64,000 nucleotides of DNA from Bryobacteraceae bacterium. GTDB taxonomy: Bacteria > Acidobacteriota > Terriglobia > Bryobacterales > Bryobacteraceae. Every line of letters begins with the position of its first letter. Position 1 is the stretch's first letter. Where the stretch lies: contig JBKQVG010000251.1 in the NCBI GenBank assembly GCA_052325345.1, positions 1 to 64,000 of the forward strand, given 5' to 3'. Under the pieces are notes generated by a model that saw only the letters and a list, made by a program, of their open reading frames with translations, was not told the origin of the DNA and did not search any database. The translations under genes and the position numbers were made by a program. This document shows positions 2,307-52,480 of the stretch, piece after piece.

Positions 2307-3167
2307 ATGGCTGCAAGCGTCTGGAAAGGTCAACTGACTTTCGGGCTGGTATCGTTTCCCATCCGTCTGTTCAGCGCCGCCCGCAGCGAAACCATCAGCT
2401 TCAATCAACTCCACAAAGGCGACAACTCGCGCATCCGCCAGGTGACATATTGCCAGGCGGAAGACAAGCCCGTACCGCGCACCGAACTCGTAAAAGGCTA
2501 CGAATACGAGAAAGACCGCTACGTGGTGATCGACGACGAGGACATCAAAAAGGTGGCGCCAAAAACCGCCAAGGTGATGGAGATCCTCGAATTCGTCAAG
2601 GCCGAACAGGTGGACCCTGTTTATCTCGAAAGTTCCTACTACGTGGCGCCGGACGAGGGCGGCGAGAAGCCCTATGCGCTGCTGTTCCAGGCGCTGCGGG
2701 AATCGAAATACTATGCGCTGGCTAAAGTAGCCATGCACAACCGCGAGCACATCATCGTGCTTCGCCCGGGGGCCAAGGGCATCCTTTCCCACACCATGTA
2801 CTATCAGGACGAAATCCGCCAGGTGGAGGAATTCCGTACCGATACGACGCTGGTGAAGGAAAAGGAACTGGAAATGGCGAAGATGCTGATTTCCACGCTC
2901 GAAGCCGATTTTGAGCCGCAGAAATATCGCGACGAGTACCGCGAGAACCTGCGCGCCATGATCGAAGCCAAGATCGCCGGCCGCAGCGTGGTGGAAACCC
3001 CGGCCGAACACGTGGCGCCGGTGATCGACATCATGGAAGCGCTCAAGAAGAGCCTGGCCGAGAAGCGCAAACCGGCGCAGGTGGCCACCGAAAGCGTGCC
3101 CGCCGAGGCTCAGGCCGAGGCCGCAATGCCCAAGAAACGCACGCGCAAGTCGGCGTCAGGCGGCTAG
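2307..3167 (+). CDS. ku: Ku DNA end-binding protein (NHEJ)
   Basis: MAASVWKGQLTFGLVSFPIRLFSA...VKGYEYEKDRYVVIDDEDI matches the bacterial Ku family. It has a basic C-terminal tail (PKKRTRKSASGG) and lies 65 nt from the divergent ligD. Confidence 0.95.
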   Translation: MAASVWKGQLTFGLVSFPIRLFSAARSETISFNQLHKGDNSRIRQVTYCQAEDKPVPRTELVKGYEYEKDRYVVIDDEDIKKVAPKTAKVMEILEFVKAEQVDPVYLESSYYVAPDEGGEKPYALLFQALRESKYYALAKVAMHNREHIIVLRPGAKGILSHTMYYQDEIRQVEEFRTDTTLVKEKELEMAKMLISTLEADFEPQKYRDEYRENLRAMIEAKIAGRSVVETPAEHVAPVIDIMEALKKSLAEKRKPAQVATESVPAEAQAEAAMPKKRTRKSASGG

Positions 3168-5919: not shown

Positions 5920-6078
5920 CCGAGGGCCGAAGACCGCCCAATGCCGATTATCGGCAGTTGCTTCGGCAAACGACGGACTAATGGCATCCCGAGCACCACA
6001 ATACCGATAGTCTTCCTGGAAACCGAAATGCACTTATGATTCCTTTCGCGGAATCTGAGACCGATATGAAGACAGCGA

Positions 6079-19084: not shown

Positions 19085-20062
19085 CTAAGGCTGCTTCCTG
19101 GCGAAATTCCAGGCGTGCCGCACGATCTCCCGCAGGTCCGTATATTCCGGCTTCCAGCCTAACTTGGTGCGGAGTTTGTCGGAAGCGGCGACCAGGATGG
19201 GCGGATCGCCTTCGCGGCGGGGACCGATCGTGTAGGGCACCTTCTTGCCGGTAACTTCTTCCACCGCTCGGATGATGTCGAGCACGCTGTGTCCGCTTCC
19301 GCTGCCCACGTTGAACGCATCCGATCGGCCGCCCGCCAGCAGGTATTCGAGCGCCTGAATGTGCGCCTGCGCCAGGTCGTTGACATGAATGTAATCGCGG
19401 ATACAGGTGCCGTCCGATGTCTCGTAATCGTCCCCGAACACCGTCATCGGCCGCCCGTTGGTCACCGCGCGCAGCACCAGCGGGATCAGGTGCGTCTCCG
19501 GTTCATGGCGCTCCCCCAGCCGGCCCTCGGGATCGGCGCCGCACGCATTGAAATACCGCAACCTGACGTTGGTGATGCCATGAATTTCGTCGAACCACCG
19601 CAGCAGGGTTTCCACCATCACCTTCGATTCGCCGTAGGCACTCACGGGCTGAATGGGAAACGTCTCCGCAATCGGGGTGGCGTGCGGGTTGCCGTATACC
19701 GCCGCGGTGGAGGAAAACACCACGTGCTTGACGCCCGCTTCCACCATGGCAGCCACGAGCGACAGCGATCCGCACACGTTGTTCGAGAAATAACGGGCGG
19801 GCTCGCGCATCGATTCGCCCACCGCGATAAATGCGGCGAAGTGCACCACGGCTTCGGCGCCGGTCTCCTTCAACACCGCCGCCAGTCCCTTGGTGTCGGC
19901 GATATCCATCTCCACCAGGCGCCCTTCCGGAACGTTCTCCCGGTAGCCCTTGGAAAGGTTGTCCACCACGGTCACGTCATGGCCCTGGTCGAGCAGCAGA
20001 CGGACGGTATGCGAGCCGATATAGCCGGCCCCGCCGGTCACTAATATTTTGCACGCTGTCAC
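19085..20062 (-). CDS. galE: UDP-glucose 4-epimerase
   Basis: KILVTGGAGYIGSHTV (Rossmann motif), SSTAAVYG, YGESK (the catalytic YxxxK), and NACGADPEGRLGE. Confidence 0.9.
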   Translation of the reverse strand: MTACKILVTGGAGYIGSHTVRLLLDQGHDVTVVDNLSKGYRENVPEGRLVEMDIADTKGLAAVLKETGAEAVVHFAAFIAVGESMREPARYFSNNVCGSLSLVAAMVEAGVKHVVFSSTAAVYGNPHATPIAETFPIQPVSAYGESKVMVETLLRWFDEIHGITNVRLRYFNACGADPEGRLGERHEPETHLIPLVLRAVTNGRPMTVFGDDYETSDGTCIRDYIHVNDLAQAHIQALEYLLAGGRSDAFNVGSGSGHSVLDIIRAVEEVTGKKVPYTIGPRREGDPPILVAASDKLRTKLGWKPEYTDLREIVRHAWNFARKQP

Positions 20063-20126: not shown

Positions 20127-20759
20127 ATGGAGTGGCAACTGGACGCGGCTGAAGTACGGGTGCTCGGCGCGCTGATCGAAAAGGAAATCACCACCCCCGA
20201 TCTATACCCGCTGTCGCTGAATGCGCTGGTGAACGCCTGCAACCAGAGGTCGAATCGCGACCCCGTCGTCGCTTACGACGAGGGGGTGGTGGAGGCGGCG
20301 CTGGCCTCGCTCCGCGCCAAAGGACTGGCCACGCGCATTACCGGAGCGGACGTACGCGTGCCCAAGCATACCGAGCGCTTGATCGAGAAGCTGAACCTGG
20401 GCCGCCGCGAGGTGGCGCTGCTGTGCGTGCTCATGCTGCGCGGGCCGCAAACGCCCGGCGAACTGCGGGGACGCAGCGAGCGCCTGCACACTTTCGACGA
20501 TCTGGAAGCAGTGGAGCACACCCTCGATCGGATGGCCGAAAGCGGCCTGGTAAAGAAGTTGCCGCGCCAGCCCGGATCGCGCGAATCGCGGTTCGCCCAC
20601 CTGCTTTCGGGCGATGTGGAAACGGCCGCGTACGCCGAGGCTTCGGCGAGCGAGGCCCGGCCAGCGGGCCCCAGCGACAGGGAGCGCCTGGCCGCACTGG
20701 AAAACGAAGTCGCCGAGATCAAGCGCGCCTTCGAGGAATTTCGCGCCCGGTTCGAATAG
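20127..20759 (+). CDS. YceH-like DUF480 family protein
   Basis: LDAAEVRVLGALIEKEITTPDLYPLSLNALVNACNQRSNRDPVV is the characteristic YceH N-terminus. The start is placed at M27 (20127), which avoids overlap with galE. Confidence 0.75.
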   Translation: MEWQLDAAEVRVLGALIEKEITTPDLYPLSLNALVNACNQRSNRDPVVAYDEGVVEAALASLRAKGLATRITGADVRVPKHTERLIEKLNLGRREVALLCVLMLRGPQTPGELRGRSERLHTFDDLEAVEHTLDRMAESGLVKKLPRQPGSRESRFAHLLSGDVETAAYAEASASEARPAGPSDRERLAALENEVAEIKRAFEEFRARFE

Positions 20760-20794
20760 GCTGGGCCGGCGTTTGTTCCGTCGCACAGTTACAC

Positions 20795-20807
20795 ATACAC
20801 TGTGTAT
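20795..20807. promoter_or_regulatory. Palindrome abutting the antitoxin start (candidate TA operator)
   Basis: ATACAC-T-GTGTAT is a perfect palindrome immediately 5' of the ATG at 20808. It is nested in CACAGT...ACTGTG. Confidence 0.4.
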
Positions 20808-21038
20808 ATGAAGAACATCACTCTCAGCGTGGACGACGATGTTCTGGCCGCCGTCCGCCGCCATGCCGCCGAGCGCGACTCCAGCGTGAACGCCTTGGTG
20901 CGTGAGTACCTGACCAATCTCGCCGGCCACCAGGACCGCGCCCGCCGCGCCCGCGGGCGGTTGCTCCAATTGAGCAGACAATCTCAAGGCCGGCTTGGCA
21001 AGAAGACCTGGGCACGGGAAGACCTGCATGAGCGCTAG
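20808..21038 (+). CDS. Ribbon-helix-helix-type antitoxin (VapB-like)
   Basis: MKNITLSVDDDVLAAVRRHAAERDSSVNALVREYL is a typical RHH antitoxin N-terminus. It overlaps the downstream PIN gene by 11 nt. Confidence 0.65.
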   Translation: MKNITLSVDDDVLAAVRRHAAERDSSVNALVREYLTNLAGHQDRARRARGRLLQLSRQSQGRLGKKTWAREDLHER

Positions 21039-21441
21039 GGTCTTCTTCGATACCAACGTCCTGGTGTATGCGGCAGTTGGGAGTGGCAAGGAGGAACGCA
21101 AACGCAAGCGTGCCCTCGACCTCGTTGAATCGGAGGACTTCGGCACGTCGGCTCAGGTCTTGCAGGAGTTCTTTGTAACCGTGGTTAAGAAAGCCGTGCG
21201 TCCGCTCTCCGCCGTCCAAGCCCTGGAATGGATCGAGCAGTGGGCGGAGTTTCCCTGCCAGCCCATCGACCGCGAGCTAGTGCAGATCGCTATCGAGCTG
21301 TCGCAGCGCTTTATGATTTCTTATTGGGATGCGGCGATTCTCGCTGCCGCGGAAGCCCTGGGAACGCACACCGTCTACTCTGAAGACTTCAATGACGGTC
21401 ATCAGTACGGACGGATCCGGGTGGTAAATCCATTTTCTTGA
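21028..21441 (+). CDS. PIN-domain toxin (VapC-like)
   Basis: MSARVFFDTNVLVYA (first acidic PIN motif), ...QVLQEFF..., ...SYWDAAILAAA... The start is at the ATG at 21028. Confidence 0.8.
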   Translation: MSARVFFDTNVLVYAAVGSGKEERKRKRALDLVESEDFGTSAQVLQEFFVTVVKKAVRPLSAVQALEWIEQWAEFPCQPIDRELVQIAIELSQRFMISYWDAAILAAAEALGTHTVYSEDFNDGHQYGRIRVVNPFS

Positions 21442-21455
21442 TCGCTTCAGCCCTG

Positions 21456-21488
21456 TTATTTCCACCTGAGCAGTTTCAGCGCGAGTCC
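21456..21488 (-). repeat. Displaced second copy of the last 10 codons plus stop of the ABC-2 permease gene
   Basis: The minus strand reads GGA CTC GCG CTG AAA CTG CTC AGG TGG AAA TAA = GLALKLLRWK*. The native end at 22316-22348 reads GGC CTG GCG CTG AAA CTG TTC CGC TGG AAA TAA = GLALKLFRWK*. That is 28/33 nt identical, and the changes are mostly synonymous. Confidence 0.8.
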
Positions 21489-21524
21489 TGGCTCGCGCGC
21501 CCGGAGACCGGCCGACTGACGCGT

Positions 21525-21941
21525 TCATTTGCGCCTGCCTTCTCGAAACAGGCACACGCGGACGCCGTGGCCCGGTTTCCTCCATCCCGAGTCGGCTGTC
21601 ATCGCGGCCAAATCCAGTTGACGCGCAAGCGTCAGGCACGCCCGATCGGCGAAGGAAAGGCCATTTGTCCAGGCGAGAGAGGAAAGATCGCGGCTCGCCC
21701 ATGCCAACTCCTCGTCCCACGGAATCACTTCGAGATCCAGAGCCCTGAGCAAGCGCTCCACCAGACGCGGTTCCCCTCCCTGGCGAACCAGTTTTGTCAT
21801 CGATTCTGTGAGGCTGATTGCCGATATCACCGAGCGCTCCAGCGCGGCCTGGACCTTCTCCCATCCCTGCTCGCGTCTTACCAGCGCGATAACGGCGGAA
21901 CTGTCAAGCACGTATTGCGGCTGCTCAGTCTTCAACTTCAC
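21525..21941 (-). CDS. PIN-domain toxin (VapC-like)
   Basis: ...YVLDSSAVIALV...ISLTESMTKL...SFADRACLTLA. I place the start at the GTG at 21941 (codon 22 of the track ORF), which overlaps the antitoxin stop by 17 nt. Confidence 0.7.
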   Translation of the reverse strand: MKLKTEQPQYVLDSSAVIALVRREQGWEKVQAALERSVISAISLTESMTKLVRQGGEPRLVERLLRALDLEVIPWDEELAWASRDLSSLAWTNGLSFADRACLTLARQLDLAAMTADSGWRKPGHGVRVCLFREGRRK

Positions 21942-22209
21942 GCCGTGCCTCTTCGCGGCGCGCGGCGACCAGTTCGTCCGACCACACTTCGGTTGCGGGA
22001 GCAAGGCCGCAGAAGTATTCCTGCGCTTCGCGCACGGCAGCCGTCCTGGATTCGAGCACGATCCGCCCGGCGCGGCCTTCCGTGATACTCACCGTCGCGC
22101 CAGGCTGTACGCCGAGCTTTTCGCGAAGCGGAGCCGGTATCAGGATCCGTCCCGCGCTATCTACTTTGCCCCTGTACCTGGCTCCCACTGTTCGACGCAT
22201 TTCCCACAT
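21925..22209 (-). CDS. AbrB/SpoVT/MazE-type antitoxin
   Basis: GKVDSAGRILIPAPLREKLGVQPGATVSITEGRAGRIVL is a swapped-hairpin barrel (AbrB-like) motif. It lies upstream of, and overlaps, the PIN gene. Confidence 0.75.
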   Translation of the reverse strand: MWEMRRTVGARYRGKVDSAGRILIPAPLREKLGVQPGATVSITEGRAGRIVLESRTAAVREAQEYFCGLAPATEVWSDELVAARREEARREVED

Positions 22210-22279
22210 CCTCGCCTTTTGACATTTTACCGCAATCTGCCATCCATGGTCGGAGCAGCGCGCCGCGGTGCCGTGCGGG

Positions 22280-22305
22280 GCTGATCGCTGACTGCTGATC
22301 GCTGA
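22280..22305. repeat. Tandem GCTGATCGCTGA repeat (2 copies, 14-nt period)
   Basis: gctgatcgctga occurs at 22280-22291 and 22294-22305, 10 nt downstream of the ABC-2 permease stop. A related motif cluster is at 26936-27015. Confidence 0.7.
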
Positions 22306-22315
22306 ACGCTATCCG

Positions 22316-23341
22316 TTATTTCCAGCGGAACAGTTTCAGCGCCAGGCCGAAGCAAAGCACCATCCAGGCACCCATGATGCCGAGTTGCGGCGCGACCTGC
22401 GCCAGCGCGGCGCCCTGCAGCATGTTGGCGCGCAGCGAGTCGATCAGCGCGGTCAGGGGCAGCGCGTGGATCATGGGCTGCAGCGCGTCCGGAAACCGCT
22501 CGGCGGAGAAGAATACGCCGGAGAGGATCCACATCGGCATCATGACCAGGTTCATCAGACCGCTGGCGGCCTCGATGGTGTGCACGCGGGAGGCGATGAG
22601 CAGGCCTACCGAACTGAATGCCAGCGAGCCGGTGACGCACACCACCGCCAATCCGCCCAGCGAGCCGCGCATCGGCACGCCAAACACCACCATGCCGAAG
22701 CCCGCCACCACTCCCACTTCCACCACCAGCAGCAGCAGCCGCGAAAGGATAAACGAGAGCAGGTAGTAGTGGCGCGGCATGGGCGTGGCCACCAGGCGCT
22801 TGAGCAGCTTTTTCCGGCGTGCGTCCACCACGGCGAAGCCCACGCCCCAGATGGCGCTGCCCATCATATTCATGCCCAGCAGCCCGGGAATCAAAAAGTC
22901 GATGTAGCGGGAGCCGGGCTCGCGCATCAACCGGTCCTCGATGGGGACTGGATTGGACCGGCCGGCGGCGCGCTGGATGGCGCTATCGGCCAACTGGCGG
23001 GCGGTGCGGCCGTCGGGATTGGTGTCGTCGAAGCGGTATACCACGCCGCCGGCCGAACTCTCCACCACCAGCGCGACCTTGCCTTGCCGCAGCGCTTGGA
23101 TAGCCGAACCTGGCGGGAGCTGGCGAACGTCGAGCTGCTTTTCCTGGCGCAGCGCGCGCACCAGGCCGGGGTTGGTGGCGGCGATCTTCAGCACCTCCGC
23201 CGGCCGGTTGCGAAAAGCCAGGCCCAGGCCGCCGGCCAGCAGGATGGGAAACACGAACACCCAAAAAATGGCTTCCGGCTCGCGCACGAACTCGCGGAAG
23301 CGCACCAGCGTCAATTCGAACAGCGGATGCCGCCTATTCAT
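22316..23341 (-). CDS. ABC-2 type transporter permease
   Basis: Six hydrophobic segments and ABC-2 family features (MNRRHPLFELTLVRFREFVREPEAIFWVFVFPILLA...). The start is at M11 (23341), overlapping the ATPase stop by 8 nt. Confidence 0.8.
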   Translation of the reverse strand: MNRRHPLFELTLVRFREFVREPEAIFWVFVFPILLAGGLGLAFRNRPAEVLKIAATNPGLVRALRQEKQLDVRQLPPGSAIQALRQGKVALVVESSAGGVVYRFDDTNPDGRTARQLADSAIQRAAGRSNPVPIEDRLMREPGSRYIDFLIPGLLGMNMMGSAIWGVGFAVVDARRKKLLKRLVATPMPRHYYLLSFILSRLLLLVVEVGVVAGFGMVVFGVPMRGSLGGLAVVCVTGSLAFSSVGLLIASRVHTIEAASGLMNLVMMPMWILSGVFFSAERFPDALQPMIHALPLTALIDSLRANMLQGAALAQVAPQLGIMGAWMVLCFGLALKLFRWK

Positions 23342-24272
23342 CGCGCAGCCGCCGTCCCGTGAATGCCACAAAAACGTCCTCTAACGTTGCCGAATGCACG
23401 CGCAGCTCGGTGAGCGGTTGCCCTTGCCGCTCCAACTCGTCGAGCAGGGCCGGCAGCGCGTCATGGAGCTGCCCGACCTGGGCTTCCACCGCGCCGTCCT
23501 CCGTCCGCGCGGCGGCCACGCATCCCAGGGCGCCGAAGGCGGCGGCATCGAGCTGGCGGCCGGCCGAAGACAATCGGACCACGTGCCCGGCGCCGATCGA
23601 GGCGATCAGCTCGCCCGGAGTGCCCAGCGCGATCACCTTGCCGTGGTCCATGATGGCCACGCGGTCGCAGAGGCGTTCGGCCTCCTCCATGTAGTGCGTG
23701 GTGAGCAGAATCGTGCGGCCGGCCCGTTGCAATTCCGCGATCAGCTCCCAGAGCTGCCGGCGCGCGTGCGGATCGAGGCCGGTCGTGGGCTCATCGAGGA
23801 ACAGTAGGTCGGGTTCGCCCACCAGCGCGCAGGCCAGCGCCAGCCGCTGCTTCTGGCCGCCGGAAAGGCCGCCCACGCGGGATTCGCGCTTTTCGTCCAG
23901 TTGCACGCGGGCGATCACCTCGTCCGCCGACGGGCCCCGCGGAAAGAAGCTGCGAAACAGCGAGAGCGTCTCGTGCACCGTGAGCTTTTCGGAAAGCTGC
24001 GTCTCCTGGAGCTGAATGCCGAGCCGCTCCCGCAAACGCCGGGCGTCTTTTTCCCACCTCATCCCGAGCACTTCCACGTCGCCCGAATCGCAGCCGGTCA
24101 GCCCTTCGCAGATTTCGATGGTGGTGGTTTTTCCCGCCCCGTTGGGACCCAGCAGGCCGAAACATTCGCCCGCGCGCACTTCCAGATTCAGGCCGTCCAC
24201 GGCTAGCACATCCTGAAACGCCTTGCGGAGATTGCGCACGCGCAATGCCGGCGGCGCGGATGATGGCGACAT
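23334..24272 (-). CDS. ABC transporter ATP-binding protein
   Basis: Walker A GPNGAGKTTT, signature LSGGQKQRL, Walker B LLFLDEPTTGLD. The start is moved to M45 (24272; MSPSSAPPALRVRNLRK). Confidence 0.9.
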   Translation of the reverse strand: MSPSSAPPALRVRNLRKAFQDVLAVDGLNLEVRAGECFGLLGPNGAGKTTTIEICEGLTGCDSGDVEVLGMRWEKDARRLRERLGIQLQETQLSEKLTVHETLSLFRSFFPRGPSADEVIARVQLDEKRESRVGGLSGGQKQRLALACALVGEPDLLFLDEPTTGLDPHARRQLWELIAELQRAGRTILLTTHYMEEAERLCDRVAIMDHGKVIALGTPGELIASIGAGHVVRLSSAGRQLDAAAFGALGCVAAARTEDGAVEAQVGQLHDALPALLDELERQGQPLTELRVHSATLEDVFVAFTGRRLRDE

Positions 24273-24494
24273 CCTAATAGTGTAATTCGCCGGATGGGCG
24301 GATATGCCGTTTGTGGTCATTGCCCCGCTTAAGCCGGTCCAGCCCGGCGCGGCCGCTCCAGCCTGCGGCGAGATTTCGCACTCCTGCAATCTCAAGCCTG
24401 TCAAAGCCTACCCGTTCCCATCCCCCCGCCCGCTCCGCAAATCGCCTGAACTCCAGCTCCCGGCCCGTCGTACTATCTTTTTCGGGGGTTCGGG

Positions 24495-27015: not shown

Positions 27016-29196
27016 TCAGCGGATACGAAACAGCACCTCGTTCCTCGAGCGGGCTTCGACGGTCATGTTCCACTCCAGCGGGTGGGCCAGAATTGCCTCG
27101 CCGAGAGGGCCGTTGCCGGAATCGCCCACCGGGGCCATCACGTAGCGATAGCCGGCGCGCCTCAACAAACGGGCCACGGCGAACCGCCAGTCCTCCGGCC
27201 GGCGCAGGGTGGCGACGCCGGGTGTGGCGACCTTGCTCCAGTGAAAGTCCAGACCCTGGACCCAGCAATCGAGCGACACGCCGAGCGCCGGAGTATGCGA
27301 CAGGACCACGGCGGTGTCGATGGTGCGCGGCCCATCGAAATCCACTTCCAGGAACATGCCGCGGCGCAACGGCTCCCAGGTCCGCCAGCGCGTCAGCGTC
27401 AGTCCGTCGAAAGCCAGCGGCGCTTCCCACACGTTGGGTTTGGCGCGCAGGGTCCAGGCGGGATTGGAGTCGAGCCGCTCACCGTTCGAAGCGAACTCCA
27501 CTTCGTCCACGTCCCATTCGCTCGGGTAGCCGGCGGGAATCCGAAACTGCACGGCCCGCAGCGATTGGGACGGGAATTCGAAGCGCCAGTCATAGAAGTA
27601 ATCGGTGGTGGCGTTGGCGGCCAGGTGAAACATGTCGTCGAGGCGGTCGCATTCGGCCGACTGCCAGAAAACGCGCACGTCCCGGTCGAGGTAGGCGTTG
27701 GCCACGGCGCTGAAAGAGAAGATGCGTGCGCCGGGAGGGCTATGGGCTTCGATCATCCGCGCGGCGGCGTATTCCGTGGTGTGGGTTGCCAGGTAGTGGG
27801 ACTCCGATTCGATGCGCAGCGCGGCGGCGAGCGGAAATTCGTGCAGGCGGAACGTCCAGGGCGGCTGAAAGGCGTTGAGCAACTGCGGCCAGCAGAGTGC
27901 GGCTTGAAGCCAGAACGCGGCCCAGGCGGCGCGGCGCGGCAGCACCAGGCCCAGCGCCAGCCATCCGAACACCACCGCCGGCATCAGGAAGCGGGCGCCC
28001 TTGTTGCTCAACCAGGGGGTCGAGAGCAGCAGGGCCGCCGCCAAGCACAGCCGGCCGGCACGGCTGCGCCACGCCAGCAAAGCGAGCGGAAGCAGCCATA
28101 GGAGCGGTCCGAAGGTGCCCACCATGCGGTCGCCAAAAGCCAGTTCCCACGGCACGCCCCACCACTTCACCGTGCCCAGGGAAGCCAGGTGCGAAGCAAG
28201 ATCCCGTTCGACGGCGATGTGAAAAAACGGATTGGGAAAGATGCGGTTGCCAAGCGGTGCCAGAGGATTGCCGGTGAGGAAGGCGGCGCGGCCCATCCAC
28301 GGCGCTATGCTCAACGCGGCTCCCGCGGCCAACGGAAACAAGCCGCGCCAACGCCGCTGCGCGATCACGAATAGAACCGTGCCCAACACGGCGGCCGCTC
28401 CCGGCATCTTGATGGCATAACAGAAGCCGGCCGTCAAGCCCGCGGCCAGCAGGTGCGCGCCGCCGCCGGGCACCCGGTCCCGCCATTCGAGGAGAAGCCA
28501 AAACGACGCCAGCGCGAAGAAAACCAGCGCGGCGTCGTTGTAGGACGACGATCCGGTGAGCCCGGCGACGGGAGCGAAGAAGTAGGCTCCCGCGGTGAGC
28601 AGCGCGCCCCCGCGGCTCAATCCCAATCGCGCGGCAATCCGCAAAATCAGCGGAGGCGTGGCGGCAAACAGGGCGAACTCCACCAGTTTTGCGGCCGAGT
28701 GGCGTCCAAAAGCAAACGCCGCCGTAAAGAGCATTTCCATGCCCTGCGGCACCATGTCGAAGAACGTGATGCGGTCGGGAAAAGCGCCCATGCGGACGTA
28801 CTCGGCGGGCAGGCCGAGATGATAGGTGAGGCCGTCGGGCCACGTTTCGGGAACCAGCGCATTGACCAGATACCAGACGCCGTAGGCGAGAAAGGGAATG
28901 ACGGGCAATAAAAAGTCCCAGCCCGAGGCCCGCGGCAGAGGCCGGGTCGCCGCCGCCCGGGAACGCGCCGGCCAGGCGAGCCACGCCAGCGGCGCGGCGC
29001 CCAAGCCGAGATACATGGGCCAACCGCCGGCGCCGCACGCCAGAATGACAAACACCAGCAGGCTTTCGATGGCGGCGCCTGCCGCCAGGGCGATTTCCCA
29101 GGGGATGGAAAGCCGGCGCAATGCCAAAGCTCCCCACGCATAGGCTGAAGCTACGGTGAAAGCACCGCCAAATAAAATGGAGACCAGTTCAGGCAC
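27016..29196 (-). CDS. Polytopic membrane protein, GT-C/PMT_2-like putative glycosyltransferase with a soluble C-terminal region
   Basis: About 12 hydrophobic segments over the first roughly 460 aa, with an ArnT/PMT-like layout. The C-terminal roughly 260 aa is soluble and includes a discoidin-like stretch (AWTLRAKPNVWEAPLAFDGLTLTRWRTWEP...FLEVDF). The family assignment is from pattern recognition only. Confidence 0.55.
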   Translation of the reverse strand: MPELVSILFGGAFTVASAYAWGALALRRLSIPWEIALAAGAAIESLLVFVILACGAGGWPMYLGLGAAPLAWLAWPARSRAAATRPLPRASGWDFLLPVIPFLAYGVWYLVNALVPETWPDGLTYHLGLPAEYVRMGAFPDRITFFDMVPQGMEMLFTAAFAFGRHSAAKLVEFALFAATPPLILRIAARLGLSRGGALLTAGAYFFAPVAGLTGSSSYNDAALVFFALASFWLLLEWRDRVPGGGAHLLAAGLTAGFCYAIKMPGAAAVLGTVLFVIAQRRWRGLFPLAAGAALSIAPWMGRAAFLTGNPLAPLGNRIFPNPFFHIAVERDLASHLASLGTVKWWGVPWELAFGDRMVGTFGPLLWLLPLALLAWRSRAGRLCLAAALLLSTPWLSNKGARFLMPAVVFGWLALGLVLPRRAAWAAFWLQAALCWPQLLNAFQPPWTFRLHEFPLAAALRIESESHYLATHTTEYAAARMIEAHSPPGARIFSFSAVANAYLDRDVRVFWQSAECDRLDDMFHLAANATTDYFYDWRFEFPSQSLRAVQFRIPAGYPSEWDVDEVEFASNGERLDSNPAWTLRAKPNVWEAPLAFDGLTLTRWRTWEPLRRGMFLEVDFDGPRTIDTAVVLSHTPALGVSLDCWVQGLDFHWSKVATPGVATLRRPEDWRFAVARLLRRAGYRYVMAPVGDSGNGPLGEAILAHPLEWNMTVEARSRNEVLFRIR

Positions 29197-29265
29197 TCGA
29201 CCGCAATTCTCACACAGTCGGGTCCGGATAGGCGAACAGAGTCGCCGGTGTGCCCAGTGAACCGG

Positions 29266-29708
29266 TCACGCGGCCTGGTCGTGTACCTGAACGGACAATC
29301 GCTTACCGAGGGCCGCAAACGCCGCCTGCAAACGATCCAACTTTGACCTGTGTTTGATGTCCAGCAACCGGTCAACCTGGCTTGGGGAGCATCGGAGCCT
29401 CCGCGCCAACTCCACTTCCTGACACCGGCTGAGCGCAAGGCCTCGTACAGCATGAACTTCGCCTCGCTCAGCGCCGGAACCGGCACGAGCCGCATTCCCT
29501 TTTTCAAGGTTCCCGGCTTTGGGAGGTCGCGCGAGGCCTCGACGTAAAACGTGAGCGCGAGTTCCAGGGCCTCCTGTGCCATCGCCATCGCCTCGTTGAG
29601 GGTTTCGCCCTCGGTGATCGCCTCCGGAACGTCCGGAAAGGTAACCACGAAGCCGCCCGATGCCTTGTCTTTAACGAATCTCGCCGGATATTCCACAGGT
29701 CGCCTCAC
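29266..29708 (-). pseudogene. hicB: hicB antitoxin, frameshifted
   Basis: The frame from the GTG at 29708 gives MRRPVEYPARFVKDKASGGFVVTFPDVPEAITEGETLNEAMAMAQEAL...YEALRSAGV. The canonical C-terminal HTH (ELARRLRCSPSQVDRLLDIKHRSKLDRLQAAFAALGKRLSVQVHDQAA*, stop at 29268-29266) continues in another frame from about 29420-29428. Compare E. coli HicB, ...QQELARRIGKPKQEITRLFN...LAAKALGKELSL. The 185-aa track ORF is the frameshift read-through. Confidence 0.75.
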
Positions 29709-47159: not shown

Positions 47160-48404
47160 ATGCGGAAACTCCTGGGGAAGTTCCGCTACCAGATCGTGCT
47201 GTTCTTCGCCGTGATCGGCCCCGGCTTCATTACGGCCATGGTCGACAACGACTCCGGAGGCATTTATACCTACTCCGCCGCGGGGGCCAAGTACGGTTAC
47301 CTTCCGCTGTGGACGCTGGCGCCCATCACGGTGCTGCTGATCATCGCGCAGGAGATGTGCTCGCGCATGGGCGCGGTCACCGGCAAGGGACTGTCGGACC
47401 TGATTCGCGAGGAATTCGGACTGCGCATCACGTTTCTGACCATGGCGCTGCTGGTTTTCGTGAACCTGACCAACGTGATGAGCGAATTCGCCGGGGTGGC
47501 CAGCTCGCTCGAACTGTTCCACGTGAGCCGCTACATTTCCGTGCCGCTGGCGGCCGTCGGCGTATGGCTGCTGGTGGTGCAGGGGACGTACAAGAGCGTG
47601 GAGAAGATTTTTCTGTTTGCCTCCGTCCTGTACATCACCTACATCATTTCCGGCTTCCTGGTGAAACCGGATTGGAAGGAAGCCGCGATCTACAGCGTGA
47701 AGCCGGTGATGATGCTCGATTCCGGCTACATCTACATGCTGATTGGCATGGTGGGCACCACCATCGCGCCCTGGATGCAGTTCTACCTGCAATCGGCGGT
47801 GGTGGAGAAAGGCGTCTCGGCCAGGGAATACGCCGCTTCGCGGGTGGAAGTGGTGGTGGGCTGCATCATGACCAACGTGATCGCGTTCTTTATCATCGTG
47901 GCCTGCGCCGGAGCCATCTACCGCGTGGCGCCGAGGGATATTCAGGACGCCAAGGAGGCCGCGCTGGGCTTGAAGCCGTTCGGGCAATACGCGTTCCTGC
48001 TTTTCAGCGCGGGCCTGTTCAACGCCTCGATTTTCGCCGCCAGCATCCTGCCGCTCTCCACCGCCTATTCGGTCTGCGAAGGCCTGGGGTTCGAGGCCGG
48101 GGTGAACTTCCGGCTGCGGGAAGCGCCGATATTCTATTTCCTCTATACGGCGCTGATCGCGGTGGGGGCGGGCGTGGTGCTGGTCCCCAATTTCCCGCTG
48201 GTGCGCATGATTCTGCTCTCCCAGGTGCTGAACGGCGCGCTGCTGCCCGTGGTGCTGATCTTCATGGTGCTGCTGATCAACCGCAAGGACCTGATGGGCG
48301 AATGGATCAATCCGCCCTGGTACAACCTGGTGTCGTGGATCTCGGTGGCCATCGTGGTGGGATTGACCCTGGCGTTGACGGCGATCGGTTTGAGGGGGAT
48401 GTAG
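47160..48404 (+). CDS. Nramp-family transporter with Nramp-related magnesium transporter (NRMT)-type binding-site residues
   Basis: Nramp fold signatures. TM1 is GPGFITAMVDNDSGGIYTYSAAGA (canonical DPGN replaced by DSGG). TM6 is GMVGTTIAPWMQFYLQS (canonical A..MPH replaced by T..APW). About 11 hydrophobic segments. Confidence 0.85.
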   Translation: MRKLLGKFRYQIVLFFAVIGPGFITAMVDNDSGGIYTYSAAGAKYGYLPLWTLAPITVLLIIAQEMCSRMGAVTGKGLSDLIREEFGLRITFLTMALLVFVNLTNVMSEFAGVASSLELFHVSRYISVPLAAVGVWLLVVQGTYKSVEKIFLFASVLYITYIISGFLVKPDWKEAAIYSVKPVMMLDSGYIYMLIGMVGTTIAPWMQFYLQSAVVEKGVSAREYAASRVEVVVGCIMTNVIAFFIIVACAGAIYRVAPRDIQDAKEAALGLKPFGQYAFLLFSAGLFNASIFAASILPLSTAYSVCEGLGFEAGVNFRLREAPIFYFLYTALIAVGAGVVLVPNFPLVRMILLSQVLNGALLPVVLIFMVLLINRKDLMGEWINPPWYNLVSWISVAIVVGLTLALTAIGLRGM

Positions 48405-48410
48405 AAGAGC

Positions 48411-48722
48411 TCAAGGCCTTCGGGCTTCGCGGCGGAGACCTTCGTGCACCAGCATTTTCAGCAGCGTCTGGTAGCCGATACCCTTGCGGGTTGCGATCTC
48501 GCGGGCCTTGTTCACGTCGGGCGCAGGCAAGCGCAGGGCGATCTGAACGCTTGCCGGCTTGTTCAGTTGGTCGACGAGGCGGGAGCCCTTGGTTGTGCTT
48601 CCTTTTTTGAGCGCTGCCGCCGACTTGCGCTTCACGAATTCGCGGCCCGCGGGGCTCGCCCACCAATCCGCTTCTTCGGCTTCACTCACGAATCTCGGCA
48701 TTTCATTCCGCATTTTTCTCAT
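48411..48722 (-). CDS. brnA: BrnA-type antitoxin
   Basis: ...VQIALRLPAPDVNKAREIATRKGIGYQTLLKMLVHEGL is the BrnA C-terminal RHH-like pattern (GYQT). It lies 4 nt downstream of the BrnT gene. Confidence 0.75.
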   Translation of the reverse strand: MRKMRNEMPRFVSEAEEADWWASPAGREFVKRKSAAALKKGSTTKGSRLVDQLNKPASVQIALRLPAPDVNKAREIATRKGIGYQTLLKMLVHEGLRREARRP

Positions 48723-48726
48723 CGAT

Positions 48727-49011
48727 TCACTCCCCTTGCAACCGACGCATCAGGTAGTCTTTCTTCTGCCCGGCATCCAGTTCATACGCAGTCACGACGC
48801 GGATCCTCTCCCCCCGTTCGGTCACGATAGCGGCCATCAACCGCCCCGCATCGGTCTCGCAGTAATAGACGTAGCGCACTTCTCCTTGGACATCCTGCTC
48901 GTAGATTAGGATCGGAGCGTTCGAAAGACCCTGCTCGACCTCTAGGCGCTTGATTCGATGGGCCCGTATCTTGCGCAAGTTGTTCTCATCCCAGTCGAAC
49001 ACGTTATCCAC
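48727..49011 (-). CDS. brnT: BrnT-type toxin (DUF497)
   Basis: MDNVFDWDENNLRKIRAHRI...EVRYVYYCETDAGRLMAAIVTERGERIRVVTAYEL follows the DUF497/BrnT pattern (F.WD..K...N..KH...F.EA...F....GR.L.VV...R....IRIISAR). Confidence 0.8.
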   Translation of the reverse strand: MDNVFDWDENNLRKIRAHRIKRLEVEQGLSNAPILIYEQDVQGEVRYVYYCETDAGRLMAAIVTERGERIRVVTAYELDAGQKKDYLMRRLQGE

Positions 49012-49046
49012 TATTGTATATGCATTGCATAACAGTTTCCCGCGCT

Positions 49047-49136
49047 CGCCCGCCGTGGTACAACCTGGTGTCGTGGGTGACGGTGGCCATTATGATCGGG
49101 CTGGCGCTGGCGGCGATCAGTCTGCGGGGGATGTGA
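49047..49136 (+). repeat. Second, diverged copy of the 3' end of the Nramp-type gene, with its own stop
   Basis: 49050-49136 reads PPWYNLVSWVTVAIMIGLALAAISLRGM*. The native end at 48312-48404 reads PPWYNLVSWISVAIVVGLTLALTAIGLRGM*. There is a 21-nt perfect core, tggtacaacctggtgtcgtgg (49056-49076 equals 48318-48338). By hand alignment, 70/87 nt are identical with a 2-codon gap. Confidence 0.85.
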
Positions 49137-49321
49137 ACCCGGCAGCCGCACGCGACAAGTCCGGGACAGCAGCCGTTGCGCCGAATTCACCGATCAGTGG
49201 GCGGGCGGCTGCCGAGGCTCTAGACAACCGGGCGCAGGGGTAACTGTGCCCGGTTCCCTCTTTCGCTGCCCTTCTTTCGCCGCCCTTGCCCGAAGGCCGG
49301 TTCTCCAGTATCTTAGTGGGC

Positions 49322-49576
49322 ATGGAAGTGCATCTTGCTCCCGACCTGCAGGCTAAGATCGACCAACTGGTCATCGAAACCGGACGCGCGCCCGATAAGC
49401 TGCTTGAGGACGCCATGGCTGGATACCTTGCCGAGCTTGCGGAAACGCGCGACACGCTCAACAGCCGTTATGACGACCTGAAAAGCGGTAGGGTGAAGCC
49501 CATTCCGGGCAAGGAGGTGGAAGCCTACTTCCGTGAAAAGAGCGCTACCGCGCGTGGTTCGCAGCCCGGTTCATGA
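49322..49576 (+). CDS. ParD/RHH-type antitoxin
   Basis: MEVHLAPDLQAKIDQLVIETGRAPDKLLEDAMAGYLAEL is an RHH-like N-terminus. Its stop overlaps the toxin start (ATGA at 49573). The start is at M13 of the track ORF. Confidence 0.65.
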   Translation: MEVHLAPDLQAKIDQLVIETGRAPDKLLEDAMAGYLAELAETRDTLNSRYDDLKSGRVKPIPGKEVEAYFREKSATARGSQPGS

Positions 49577-49883
49577 CCGGATACGAGTTTCACCCGGAAG
49601 CCCATGTTGACCTCGCCGAGATTTGGGAGTTGATTCGCGCGGATAATCTCGACGCCGCCGACCGGGCGATTGGGGAATTCTGTCCGCCATTCGCGCGTTG
49701 GTTCCATTTCCCTGTCAAGGCCACAGACGCACCGACCTCACCTCGCGTCCATTGCGCTTCATTCGGGTACGCGAATACCTGATAGCCTACGCGCCAGACG
49801 AAAAGCCCCTCTGGGTTCTCGTAGTCATACACGGGCGCCCCAGCCCTCGCGTGATGGCCGCAATCCTCAGAGGCAGGGAGTAG
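49573..49883 (+). pseudogene. parE: ParE/RelE-family toxin, frameshifted
   Basis: The N-terminal part is in one frame (MTGYEFHPEAHVDLAEIWELIRADNLDAADRAIGE). The remainder is in the -1 frame (ILSAIRALVPFPCQGHRRTDLTSRPLRFIRVREYLIAYAPDEKPLWVLVVIHGRPSP...RE*). The junction is at the G run 49672-49675 (tggggaatt). Joined, the two parts give a typical roughly 103-aa ParE. Confidence 0.7.
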
Positions 49884-49942
49884 TGGCCATCGTGGTGGGA
49901 CTGACCCTGGCGTTGACGGCGATCAGCCTGAGGGGGATGTAG
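49883..49942 (+). repeat. Third copy of the 3' end of the Nramp-type gene (last 19 codons plus stop)
   Basis: GTGGCCATCGTGGTGGGACTGACCCTGGCGTTGACGGCGATCAGCCTGAGGGGGATGTAG = VAIVVGLTLALTAISLRGM*. It is 56/60 nt identical to 48345-48404. Its first base is the last base of the parE stop codon. Confidence 0.9.
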
Positions 49943-50004
49943 GTGGGCTGAATGGCCAGGGCCAACAACCGCTCCCTGGCGGTCGCGGCTCGGAAAGGTG
50001 CGTC

Positions 50005-50241
50005 TCACCGCGAGGGGTTCCGCCGGGAGCCGGCTCGCTTGGCGATCTCGGCCAGTGATCGTAGCGCGGCGTTCACCGCGGCGGCGTTCGGAAACAGGTC
50101 AGCGATCTCGGGGTCGACCACAACAACGTTCGACGATCCTCTGAGTTGCTCGACGTATTTCCCGCGGACCAGCGCATGGAAGTCGGAGCGCTTATATTCG
50201 GCGCGAAGTTCGTCCGCGGGCACCCGCTTAGTCTTCCTCAT
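50005..50241 (-). CDS. Antitoxin partner of a DUF497 toxin (BrnA-like, different subfamily from 48411-48722)
   Basis: The start is at M21 (50241): MRKTKRVPADELRAEYKRSDFHALVRGKYVEQL...VVVDPEIADLFPNAAAVNAALRSL. It overlaps the toxin stop by 14 nt. Confidence 0.65.
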   Translation of the reverse strand: MRKTKRVPADELRAEYKRSDFHALVRGKYVEQLRGSSNVVVVDPEIADLFPNAAAVNAALRSLAEIAKRAGSRRNPSR

Positions 50242-50500
50242 ATAGTTTCCTCTCGGACCGCGTGGCCTGCCGCGCGGTAATGATTCGAATGGAGTCGCCA
50301 TGCTGGCCGTGCGCGACCACGAGCAGGCGCCCGGACGACGACGCGCCGAATGTCACGAAACGCCTTTCGTCGAGCGAATGATCCGGATCGTCACCTGTTG
50401 CCGACAGAGGATCAAAGAACACACTTGCAGCCTCCGCAAAGGATATACCGTGTTTCCGCAGGTTCGCGGCAGCCTTTAGAGCATTCCATTCGAAACGCAC
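50228..50500 (-). CDS. brnT: BrnT-type toxin (DUF497), second and diverged copy
   Basis: MRFEWNALKAAANLRKHGISFAEAASVFFDPLS...GRLLVVAHGQHGDSIRIITARQATRSERKLYE matches the DUF497 consensus closely. GTG start at 50500, with GGGAGGTG 11 nt upstream. Confidence 0.8.
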   Translation of the reverse strand: MRFEWNALKAAANLRKHGISFAEAASVFFDPLSATGDDPDHSLDERRFVTFGASSSGRLLVVAHGQHGDSIRIITARQATRSERKLYEED

Positions 50501-50890
50501 CCGGATGTCTTCACCTCCCTACAGTATAGCCAAAGTGAGGCCGTCCTCCCGATCCGTGCCGGCCTATGAGTGCGCCACATAGAAGTGAGGGAACTGTCTA
50601 AGTGCATGCCAGTCGAGAAAATCCGAGCGTAACCTGTACTTACTGCAACTGGCCGTCGGTGGGGCTGTTAGGGGGGACCCCCGTTCCGCCATAGGCGTTA
50701 ATATGACGTCCCAAAGTTGGCCCACCAGTGCTCGTGGTGCAGGCGCCCCGCCTGCACCACCGAGACTCTGGCAGCGGCAAGAAATACAAACACCGCTGTC
50801 TCGGTAAGTCCTCAGCGGCCGCCGCCTGACGGATGAGCCCAAACCAAGCCGCAGCCACAAGGAGCCGGTTTGCAGGGTGTGTCCGGCAGG

Positions 50891-51100
50891 AGAGTGGTGC
50901 AAACGCGGTTCCCAACGGCCCGCAAACATTGCGCGCTCGACGATTCCGGCGAGCGCACCTTGGAGCTGGCCGTCCGCCGCCTGTCGCTCTCGGCGCGCGC
51001 TCACGATCGCATCCTGAAAGTGGCCCGCACCATCGCCGATATCGCCGGCCCGGAAATGTAGCACGTGCGAGGCAGAGGCGGCGACCGGTCTCCGAAGCGT
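50891..51100 (+). pseudogene. comM: C-terminal remnant of a comM/yifB-type Mg-chelatase-like AAA+ gene
   Basis: RVVQTRF...RKHCALDDSGERTLELAVRRLSLSARAHDRILKVARTIADIAGPEM* matches the conserved Mg_chelatase_C end of ComM/YifB (...LSARAYDRILKVARTIADL...). An in-frame TAG at 51059-51061 precedes the expected final roughly 15 codons. No AAA+ or N-terminal part is present anywhere upstream. Confidence 0.7.
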
Positions 51101-51214
51101 CCGTGCGGATCGAACGCGATCTTACGCCGTTCCAGGGCTGCCGCACCTACCGCAACCGAAATCCGCGGCTGCGGCTTACGCCATGGGCTTATTCTTCCAC
51201 CCCGACGGGCTCGA

Positions 51215-52480
51215 TTACGTTTCCTCCAGGGCTTCCCGGGCGGCGGCGATGGTTTGGGCGATATCTTCGTCGGAATGCGCGGCGGATAGGAAAGCGGCTT
51301 CAAATTGCGAGGGCGCGAGATAGATGCCGCGGTCCAGCATGGCGCGGAAGAAACGTCCAAAACGGGCGGTGTCGCTGCGCTTGGCGGAGTCCCAATCGAT
51401 CACGGGCTGGCCGCTGAAGAAGAAGGTGAACATGGAGCCGACGCGATTCACGGTGATGCCGGCCGGGGCGGCGGCGCACAGGCGCGCGGCACGGGTTTCG
51501 AGCCGCGCGTAGATTTCCGGATGGGCCTTCAACTCGCGCAGCATGGCCAGGCCGGCGGCCACGGCGAGCGGGTTGCCGGAAAGCGTGCCGGCCTGGTAGA
51601 CGGGGCCGGAGGGCGCGATCATGCTCATAATGTCCTTGCGGCCGCCATAAGCGCCGACGGGCAAACCGCCGCCGATCACCTTGCCGAGGGTGGTGAGGTC
51701 GGGGCGGATGCGGTAAAGCTGCTGGGCGCCGCCGAACGCTACCCGGAAGCCGGTCATGACTTCGTCGAAGATCAGCAGGGCGCCGTGCCGTTCGGTGATG
51801 GCGCGCAGTCCTTCGAGGTAACCGGGCTGAGGCGGCACGCAGCCCATGTTGCCCACCACCGGCTCCACGATTACCGCCGCGATGGCGGGCCCGTGCATGC
51901 GGAAGGCGGCTTCCACGGCGTCGAGCGAATTGTAAGGCAGGGCCAGGGTGGTATCGCAGAAGGCCTTGGGCACGCCCTGGGTATCGGCGATGCCGAGAGT
52001 GGCCACGCCCGAACCGGCCTTCACCAGCAGGGAATCGACGTGGCCGTGATAGCAGCCTTCGAATTTGACGATCAGGTCGCGGCCGGTGAATGCGCGCGCC
52101 AGGCGAATGGCCGACATGGTGGCTTCGGTGCCGGAATTCACCAGCCGCACCATTTCGATGGAGGGAACGGCGGCGCTAATGGCTTCGGCCAGCTCGACCT
52201 CGCGTTCGGTGGGCGCGCCGAAGCTGGTGCCGATGGCCAGTGCCTCTTCCAGGGCCCGGATGATGGCGGGATGGCGATGGCCCAGCAGCAGCGGCCCCCA
52301 GGAGCAGACGTAATCGATGTAGCGGTTGCCATCGACGTCGAACAGATACGCGCCTTCACCGCGCTCCACGAAGACGGGGTTGCCGCCCACGCTACGAAAC
52401 GCCCGCACCGGGGAGTTGACGCCGCCGGGAATCAGAGTTTCCGCGCGGCGCATTAGAATGTCCGATCGAGAATGGTTCAT
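51215..52480 (-). CDS. hemL: Glutamate-1-semialdehyde 2,1-aminomutase
   Basis: [13 protein letters not shown]...[25 protein letters not shown]...FDEVMTGFR...[17 protein letters not shown] (PLP lysine context). Confidence 0.95.

Follow-up and report, generated by a model that had tools for sequence, protein, structure and literature searches.

We describe here an ABC-2 type transporter permease gene and the toxin-antitoxin (TA) cassette that follows it, both found in a 64-kb window (the whole stretch of DNA analysed) of a metagenome-assembled genome (MAG) contig from a member of the Bryobacteraceae (Acidobacteriota). The last codons of the permease gene are present twice, once at the end of the gene itself and once more ~860 nt downstream, and these two copies, a diverged direct repeat, enclose just the two genes of a MazE/AbrB-PIN addiction cassette, the extra non-cassette DNA amounting to 68 + 36 nt only. 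The repeat and the genes of the cassette are observed, as are the age of the scar, the fact that it recurs and the lack of mobility genes; the scar is old and, among related loci, recurrent though not common. Our tentative explanation, to which we give somewhat less than an even chance, is a homology-anchored insertion at a conserved gene end, the incoming DNA being the 'gene end + addiction cassette' of a related cell.

The permease gene end and its displaced copy

Read on the minus strand, the permease gene ends with GGC CTG GCG CTG AAA CTG TTC CGC TGG AAA TAA (22348-22316) and the displaced end reads GGA CTC GCG CTG AAA CTG CTC AGG TGG AAA TAA (21488-21456). A repeat finder and a scan both place the two copies in direct orientation, with 28/33 identical positions, or 29/34 (85%) when the base after the stop is counted, and with no identical runs longer than 10 and 12 nt. 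Among the five differences, GGC/GGA and CTG/CTC are synonymous, TTC/CTC changes Phe to Leu, and CGC/AGG keeps the Arg while altering two bases. Upstream of the 34 nt, no similarity was found between the two permease-end copies. The match stands well apart from the background: the next-best match to the 34-mer in the whole window, both strands included, is 23/34; the probability of at least 29/34 under a simple composition model is ~1.5e-12 per position and ~2e-9 over the neighbouring 1.5 kb; and the local alignment score of the pair is 25 vs a shuffle maximum of 16.

The first-pass annotation of this DNA had proposed the succession of a gene end, an AbrB/PIN cassette and a diverged gene end, and this succession is borne out by the repeat, by the distance to the next-best match and by the Pfam matches of the genes involved (for the permease, ABC2_membrane_3 at 1e-32 and ABC2_membrane at 1e-27). 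It had also named a chance match of 33 nt as a possible objection, and such a match is not expected at the probability given above. Two of its details had to be corrected. The stop codon of the neighbouring VapC gene (21439-21441) was said to abut the displaced tail and actually lies 14 nt from the displaced stop. The similarity that was said to continue past both stops (AGCGATCA) consists of short extensions that are indeed present; their significance alone is lacking, with p ~0.2 by free local alignment and ~0.06 in a collinear anchored test. Weak post-stop similarity over 7-20 nt is seen in all the repeat pairs described in this study, individually weak in each, and we consider similarity beyond the stops as suggestive evidence only.

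Comparison with the orthologues indicates which copy is in use. The permease C-terminus follows a nearly universal pattern, ...A[LV][KR][LI]FRW[RKQ] and then the stop, and the orthologues from 158 Bryobacterales/Acidobacteriota loci all end in ...FRW[RKQ] and stop. The protein encoded by the attached tail is identical to that of the related loci L001, L002, L003 and L161, and in the displaced tail the Phe shared by every orthologue is replaced by Leu. The attached copy, which matches the family consensus, is therefore the working copy, and the displaced copy, which breaks the invariant Phe, is non-coding DNA. An earlier argument that four of the five changes are synonymous was dropped: by codon position, the differences are distributed 2/0/3, which is compatible with drift.

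The unit enclosed by the repeats (Table 1) has a MazE/AbrB-like antitoxin gene upstream of, and overlapping, a PIN toxin gene, and this organization, together with the predicted products, identifies the pair at 21525-22209 as a putative type II VapBC-like module. Inspection of the toxin translation reveals the acidic residues of the PIN domain (Asp in VLDSS, Glu in LTES, Asp in FADRA and Asp in TADSG). The 68-nt spacer contains a 14-nt tandem duplication (GCTGATCGCTGA at 22280-22291 and 22294-22305, + strand), and a 7-bp hairpin (GCGCGAG/CUCGCGC) across the edge between the linker and the displaced tail, on the left side of the latter, is not convincing (z -1.9). Beyond the displaced tail lies a second TA module, composed of an RHH antitoxin and a PIN/VapC toxin (RHH-VapC) and convergent with the permease. 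An Rfam scan of 20600-22500 at E<=1 gave no match, and a promoter/terminator scan of the permease locus returned nothing exceeding shuffles. As a separate observation, the displaced tail is in frame with the PIN gene, the two stops being 69 nt apart (21456-21527), so that readthrough of the PIN UGA would add 22 residues ending in ...LLRWK; this shared frame, which does not hold at the Nramp locus described below, is probably a one-in-three coincidence.

No trace of a mobile element could be linked to the cassette. In a Pfam scan of ~45 open reading frames (ORFs) of the window, no integrase or transposase was found in or beside the cassettes, and the only mobility gene was an IS200-like Y1 transposase (54260-54985), 32 kb away and possibly associated with repetitive extragenic palindromic (REP) sequences. 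A tRNA/tmRNA scan of the whole window detected none, and the cassette DNA had no match when compared with plasmids and phages. Integron cassette features were likewise not found: the border GTTATTT does not fit the attC core GTTRRRY, and intI is not among the ~45 scanned ORFs. In the window and in L001, L003, L161 and L181, REP-like hairpin repeats (...CCGCGACCG..AGGGAGCGGT...) fill the variable spacers adjacent to the permease and Nramp stops.

Table 1. Features of the permease and Nramp loci, in window coordinates
Feature	Position	Strand	Remarks
RHH antitoxin (20802/20808-21038) and PIN/VapC toxin (21028-21441), second TA module	20802..21441	+	Pfam RHH_1, PIN
Flank between displaced stop and convergent VapC stop	21442..21454		conserved with L161
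Displaced repeat copy	21455..21488	-	GLALKLLRWK and stop, non-coding; Phe to Leu at family-invariant position
Linker, PIN stop to displaced tail	21489..21524	-	36 nt
MazE/AbrB-PIN cassette unit	21525..22246	-	~37-nt promoter/operator region + antitoxin + toxin
PIN toxin	21525-21941	-	GTG start, 17-nt overlap with antitoxin; Pfam PIN 4.2e-15, 116/120 profile positions
MazE/AbrB-like antitoxin	21925-22209	-	Pfam MazE_antitoxin 2.5e-8, above cut-off
Spacer, permease stop to cassette	22247..22314	-	68 nt
Attached repeat copy	22315..22348	-	last 10 codons (GLALKLFRWK) + stop + 1 nt
ABC-2 type transporter permease gene	22316..23341	-	341 aa from ATG; mechanical ORF extends to TTG at 23371
Partner ATPase gene	23334-24404	-	
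Nramp gene	47160-48404		tail1 48312-48404
CopG-type antitoxin + BrnT toxin	48411-49011	-	between tail1 and tail2
Nramp tail2	49050-49136		in-frame middle copy
ParD + frameshifted ParE	49278-49882		between tail2 and tail3
Nramp tail3	49883-49942		

The permease locus and its cassettes in related species

The permease orthologues were sampled in 80 species-representative genome loci and 80 metagenome loci. The same cassette directly follows the permease gene in three species that are about equidistant, at ~88-90% nucleotide identity in their flanking genes, and are represented by the window, by L161/L162/L163 and by L001, and the cassette is 93% identical among the window, L161 and L001 vs 87-90% nucleotide identity for the flanking genes. 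The three arrangements differ downstream of the permease. In the window, the order is permease, 68-nt spacer, cassette, 36 nt, displaced tail, 14 nt, the convergent RHH-VapC module and a DUF480 gene. In L161/L162/L163, a REP-like spacer separates the permease from the cassette, which is followed by ~920 nt containing a gene for a 208-aa product, a tail remnant, the flank, the RHH-VapC module and DUF480. L001 shares its REP-like spacer with L161 and continues from the cassette through 290 nt to DUF480, with no displaced tail and no RHH-VapC module in between. The homology of the cassette between the window and L001/L161 ends a few nt past the PIN stop.

The remnant in L161 carries most of the information on the history of the locus. 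Positions 5343-5357 of L161 read CTC CGC TGG AAA TAA, the last 15 nt of the displaced tail with the CTC Leu codon included, and window 21470-20780 aligns with L161 5343-6035 at 90.6%, so that the displaced copy is contiguous with the RHH-VapC module in both. Because L161 keeps the tail remnant, with its CTC codon, and the flank, the duplication and the Phe-to-Leu change predate the split between the window and L161 lineages. The remnant and the flank leading to VapC also mean that the displaced tail belongs with the RHH-VapC block, its old downstream neighbour. The CGC-to-AGG change is specific to the window lineage, and the ancestral displaced tail, as reconstructed over the part shared with L161, is identical to the attached copy at 14/15 positions. 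A gene without a Pfam family, encoding 208-221 aa on the opposite strand (L161 4474-5100, L162 838-1503), has been inserted downstream of the PIN cassette, ahead of the truncated displaced tail, and takes the place of the first ~18 nt of that tail.

A comparison of both copies with the gene ends of relatives, which had been advanced as a way to tell the resident end from the incoming one, proved less decisive. The attached copy is indeed closer to the relatives: it matches the L001 and L161 gene ends at 32/33 positions and the displaced copy at 27-29/33, and counts made by hand gave 27 (attached) vs 25 (displaced) for L002 and a tie, 28 vs 28, for L003. This does not polarise the event, because purifying selection alone would give the same result. 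The flanks, that is the contiguity of the displaced copy with the RHH-VapC module in the window and in L161, are more informative on polarity. In the cassette-free loci L002, L003, L081 and L082, the gene end occurs once and is followed by unrelated DNA after the stop, and no tandem permease genes were found downstream in any relative examined.

Both TA pairs of the permease-DUF480 slot have relatives in other genomic settings. The same MazE/AbrB-PIN unit, at 85-88% protein identity, is found in several lineages in an unrelated conserved slot, where a glycosyltransferase-type gene precedes it and a convergent FAD oxidoreductase (DAO) gene follows. There, L164 3695-4417 aligns with window 22246-21525 at 86.7% nucleotide identity, exactly from ~37 nt before the antitoxin ATG to the toxin stop, and it is this homology that sets the borders of the cassette unit in Table 1. 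Since a unit with such sharp borders is also present at 87% identity in an unrelated slot, the cassette moves as a unit. No flanking duplication accompanies it in the glycosyltransferase/DAO slot. As for the RHH-VapC family (window 20802-21441), its usual place is just downstream of ftsZ, at the end of the division and cell wall (dcw) cluster, in several Bryobacteraceae lineages (L170-L180; ~3780-4414 in L170-L175 and L180), and the homologues adjacent to ftsZ show no duplication of the ftsZ tail. At the permease locus, it is present in L161/L162 and absent in L001. These distributions show both TA pairs to be family-typical modules present here as secondary copies, having landed in a hypervariable slot. 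Near ftsZ, the RHH-VapC family has a conserved palindromic operator (TTACACAGTTACACATATACTGTGTATATG).

Gene-tail repeats at the Nramp locus and elsewhere

A second host gene in the window, an Nramp gene, bears the same kind of scar in a more elaborate form. Over 48312..49942 (+), three copies of the Nramp gene end separate a BrnTA and a ParDE cassette, the frameshifted ParE lying at 49573-49883. The alignment scores are 55 for tail1-tail3 and 49 for tail1-tail2 vs a shuffle maximum of 17, and the permease and Nramp repeats are the only strong mid-range direct repeats in the window. The first-pass annotation was thus right to recognize the pattern at two unrelated host genes, although the Nramp gene has three tail copies and not two.

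The middle copy, tail2, is the most telling of the three. Its differences from tail1 fall 9/1/7 by codon position, with an in-frame 6-nt deletion, and the probability that at most one of 17 changes hits a second codon position is ~0.01 by binomial arithmetic. The six replacements are all conservative (I/V, S/T, V/M, V/I, T/A and G/S), and four of them recreate VTVAIMIGL, a state of the wider Nramp family and not of this genus. From this coding-like divergence it follows that tail2 was the working end of a gene in some other lineage while it diverged, and that it came in with foreign DNA. Tail2 itself shifts from a genus-like sequence (PPWYNLVSW) to a foreign-like one near position -60, and this corresponds to the left edge of tail3. 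Tail3 matches the consensus of relatives that are 95-98% identical (AISLRGM), and the attached tail1 carries a unique Gly.

The slot next to this gene end turns over rapidly. In L181, whose Nramp is 98% identical, the place of BrnTA immediately past the stop is taken by a HigBA pair, the ParD and a ParE remnant are shared with the window, and the homology between the window and L181 ends exactly at the left edge of tail3. Recombination thus has its boundaries at the ends of these conserved genes, beside fast-turnover slots. Four independent metagenome assemblies (L183-L186, at ~5930-5950) break off ~190 nt beyond the Nramp stop codon, shortly downstream of a hairpin, and this shared break point suggests strain-level heterogeneity at an Nramp hot spot. 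Downstream of tail3 (window 49943-51215) are found a REP-like hairpin (49957-49997), a third BrnT toxin (50228-50500, - strand) with a partner ORF (50005-50301, - strand), and an orphan C-terminal ComM/YifB Mg-chelatase-like fragment (50870-51061; Mg_chelatase_C 2e-15) that faces hemL. The stretch from Nramp to hemL is thus a graveyard in which TA modules and gene fragments have collected.

Outside the window, the same permease gene provides one further example. In L019/L092, which represent one species (permease 72% identical at the protein level), the permease end and 7 nt past its stop are repeated 1.17 kb downstream (L019 6967-7024 and 8138-8195; 58 nt, 46/58 identical; score 34 vs a shuffle maximum of 16), and a pair formed by a FitA-like RHH antitoxin and a PIN toxin, encoded on the opposite strand, lies between these repeats. 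This is the sole other case among the 127 permease loci with at least 1.5 kb downstream, and it is an independent recurrence at the same gene, with a different TA pair. The differences within the L019 pair fall 3/3/5 by codon position, with Leu to Pro and Trp to Arg changes at conserved residues; like those of the window pair, they are compatible with the neutral decay of a duplicate that was once near-identical.

We also made a census of gene-tail repeats over ~1.6 Mb of related loci, combining a self-BLAST screen with a stop-anchored 30-mer scan that included an upstream control. Beyond the window loci and L019/L092, this census returned REP-like repeats, paralogous genes or repeat proteins only (L053, L075 and L006 were checked). 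All four tail-bracketed units are type II TA modules, and they belong to four different TA families. The length of the repeat varies from event to event (34, 58, 60 and ~90 nt), and no core recurs between events.

Routes of insertion and known parallels

How might a cassette of this kind come to lie between two copies of a gene end? Under the homology-anchored insertion that we favour, a self-contained MazE/AbrB-PIN addiction cassette would have been inserted at the final ~11 codons of the permease, leaving two copies of the gene end. The gene-borne copy would have been kept by selection, and the other one, pushed ~860 nt downstream and still joined to VapC, its former neighbour, would have been decaying. 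DNA from a related cell would have brought a conserved gene end together with the cassette, the short homology of the gene end serving as the recombination anchor, and the route may have been one-sided (homology-facilitated illegitimate) recombination or a Campbell-type single crossover, so that no element-encoded integrase would be needed. The joints would fall at the conserved gene end, as the last stretch of homology beside a hypervariable slot; the gene would survive because its end is duplicated or replaced, and the insert would be hard to lose again because it is an addiction module. Repeated rounds could then produce arrays in which gene tails alternate with TA cassettes, like that of the Nramp locus. 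The recombination route, and which of the copies came from the donor, are what we infer. This one model covers both the near-identical permease tails (from a close donor or a self-copy) and the foreign tail2 of Nramp.

Several findings speak against this explanation. (i), the spacer that separates the permease stop from the cassette in the window has no homology to that of L001/L161, the latter two sharing the REP-like spacer, a difference that the model does not account for. (ii), L001 has the cassette and neither the displaced tail nor the RHH-VapC module, which requires a later deletion or another order of events. (iii), an empty site, in which the permease would be followed by the RHH-VapC module with no cassette between them, is absent from the 160 loci and from the contexts of the VapC homologues (85-93% identity); the pre-insertion state is therefore one that we infer. 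(iv), over the ~1.6 Mb of related loci, most copies of these TA families occupy tight intergenic slots without a flanking duplication, and the gene-tail scar is therefore not an obligatory product of their movement. (v), the permease differences look like the ordinary drift of a near-identical duplicate, and a plain target duplication is just as good an explanation of this locus. An ordinary duplication-with-insertion is enough to account for the permease locus taken by itself, and the Nramp locus is the more informative of the two.

The first alternative is precisely such a long target-site duplication. The cassette would have been ligated into a double-strand break whose widely staggered ends spanned the permease stop, for instance by non-homologous end joining (NHEJ) and fill-in, giving two identical copies of ~34-55 nt, of which the displaced one then drifted. 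We consider this rather unlikely, but it is the most serious competitor. The drift-like differences of the permease (2/0/3) and L019 (3/3/5) pairs are what it predicts, the reconstructed ancestral tail agrees with it at 14/15 positions, its outcome fits the published class of 'insertion with long target duplication', and the weak similarity over 7-20 nt past the stops would be expected if the target spanned the stop, although that similarity is not significant. A Ku homologue is encoded in the window (2307-3167; Pfam Ku 1.6e-48), which makes NHEJ probable in this organism and is of relevance to break-repair models of cassette capture. Yet tail2 of Nramp, which avoids second codon positions and keeps its frame across a 6-nt deletion, is left unexplained by a staggered break, and we know of no enzyme that makes staggered cuts of 34-93 nt.

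Somewhat less probable still is a site-specific integration, in which the repeats would be the attL and attR sites of an element inserted at a gene 3' end, the island having since decayed to its TA genes, in the manner of a cis-mobilizable element (CIME), or the recombinase having acted in trans. The restored gene end with its displaced predecessor is the expected product of such an event, the serial Nramp tails resemble tandem accretion at an att site, the switch of tail2 from genus-like to foreign-like near -60 is a prediction of the crossover-point model, and the homology with L181 breaks exactly at a tail edge. Against this, the cassettes contain no recombinase and the 68 + 36 nt around the permease cassette leave no room for a remnant of one, nor is there a recombinase among the ~45 scanned ORFs. 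Also against it are the differing repeat lengths (34, 58, 60 and ~90 nt), identical runs of only 10 and 12 nt, and the involvement of four different TA families.

It is tempting to go further than our favoured insertion model and to speculate that type II TA cassettes of the Bryobacteraceae travel between genomes with a short host-gene 3' end as a portable homology handle, reaching orthologous gene ends without a dedicated recombinase. Each arrival would then replace the working end and push the previous one downstream, building integron-like arrays in which the tails may mediate the excision of circles. We regard this extended proposal as doubtful, and less probable than either of the two alternatives above.

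The remaining explanations are effectively excluded. The displaced tail could be the last remnant of a deleted paralogous permease gene or tandem duplication, and a 3'-terminal fragment in the right orientation is indeed expected from a 5' deletion; but nothing upstream of the 34 nt is similar, no relative has tandem permease genes downstream, and the event would have had to happen four times (permease, L019 and twice at Nramp), each time leaving 34-93 nt of 3' end around a TA pair. Chance similarity or an assembly artefact, conceivable in a metagenome-assembled contig, is the least credible of all: the probability of ~2e-9 and a next-best match of 23/34 argue against chance, the L161-L163 assemblies from other samples reproduce the cassette site and the tail remnant, and a mis-assembly cannot yield a diverged repeat.

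The route suggested here is not without precedent, contrary to the first-pass annotation, which had called it possibly undescribed. Nobusato et al. reportedly described, in 2000 (Gene 259:99), the insertion of restriction-modification (R-M) gene complexes with long target duplication. In this class, addiction modules devoid of mobility genes are flanked by variable repeats of more than 30 bp (Furuta, Abe & Kobayashi 2010, PMC2853133; summarised in PMC3874152); in two Haemophilus influenzae cases, 46-bp repeats overlap a gene 3' end by 15 bp and by 2 bp, and a life cycle of repeat-based excision and re-invasion has been proposed for R-M modules (PMC2853133). Our loci share with these the addiction module without a linked mobility gene and the flanking direct repeats of more than 30 bp (34, 58, 60 and ~90 nt). 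They differ in that the cargo is TA and not R-M, that the repeats are mainly the coding 3' end of a conserved gene, that tail2 of Nramp looks foreign rather than like a local copy of the target, and that a serial array is formed. The locus works like the long-target-duplication class, and class membership is not claimed, as no empty site was found.

A second published parallel comes from Microcystis aeruginosa, where a ParE/ParD pair is fenced by two identical 152-bp direct repeats that start 14 bp after the MaOC1 stop (PMC7935541). There too, a type II TA pair lies just downstream of a host gene, between direct repeats and with no mobility gene; but the Microcystis repeats are wholly past the stop, identical, and provided with an internal inverted repeat, whereas those described here are the gene's own last codons and have diverged. 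A literature search for TA modules associated with homology-facilitated illegitimate recombination or target duplication yielded nothing specific beyond these three sources (PMC2853133, PMC3874152 and PMC7935541).

Two further kinds of systems offer parallels, the first functional and the second structural. Our loci have in common with integrative elements an intact gene whose end may have been supplied by the element, a displaced and diverged original, and tandem accretion. Such elements, among them prophage e14 at icd, the islands at tRNA and tmRNA genes and the integrase-less CIMEs flanked by att sites, carry a substitute gene 3' end. The present cases differ from them in that no integrase or other element gene was found, that the inserts are single operons of 0.7-1.1 kb, and that the repeats vary in length and have no conserved core. 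The orphan toxin/immunity modules of cdiA and rhs loci are successively displaced downstream, each keeping a fragment of the host gene as a recombination handle. Displaced cassettes that each keep a conserved fragment of the host gene are thus found in both situations, but at cdiA/rhs the fragment that is kept lies upstream of a toxin domain added to the protein as its new C-terminal part, whereas the host protein of our loci stays the same and each cassette is an operon of its own.

What appears distinctive here is the combination of TA cargo, coding-end repeats, a foreign Nramp tail and a serial array. No new kind of molecular machine is revealed, and the biology of the permease and of the TA pair is ordinary. 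The movement of minimal chromosomal TA operons is poorly understood, and these operons usually lie without repeats, integrases or transposases; scars such as these are rare physical traces of TA insertion events. They suggest that conserved gene ends beside hypervariable slots serve as anchors for addiction modules, which would extend the long-target-duplication picture from R-M to TA systems. A gene-tail repeat downstream of a conserved gene is, moreover, a simple sequence signature that could be mined genome-wide to date and polarise TA acquisitions. The view that the process is general in this genome was overstated: it was based on 64 kb of that genome, and most of the related TA cassettes over ~1.6 Mb have no duplication.

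Two minor features of the window complete this description. A HicB-like antitoxin gene (29151-29708) is a TA component for which no gene-tail repeat was detected. At 20049-20062, the DUF480 gene and a GalE-like epimerase gene abut, with no LacI-family regulator gene between them; such a regulator gene separates the two in L001 (8853-9921) and in L161 (6930-7985).

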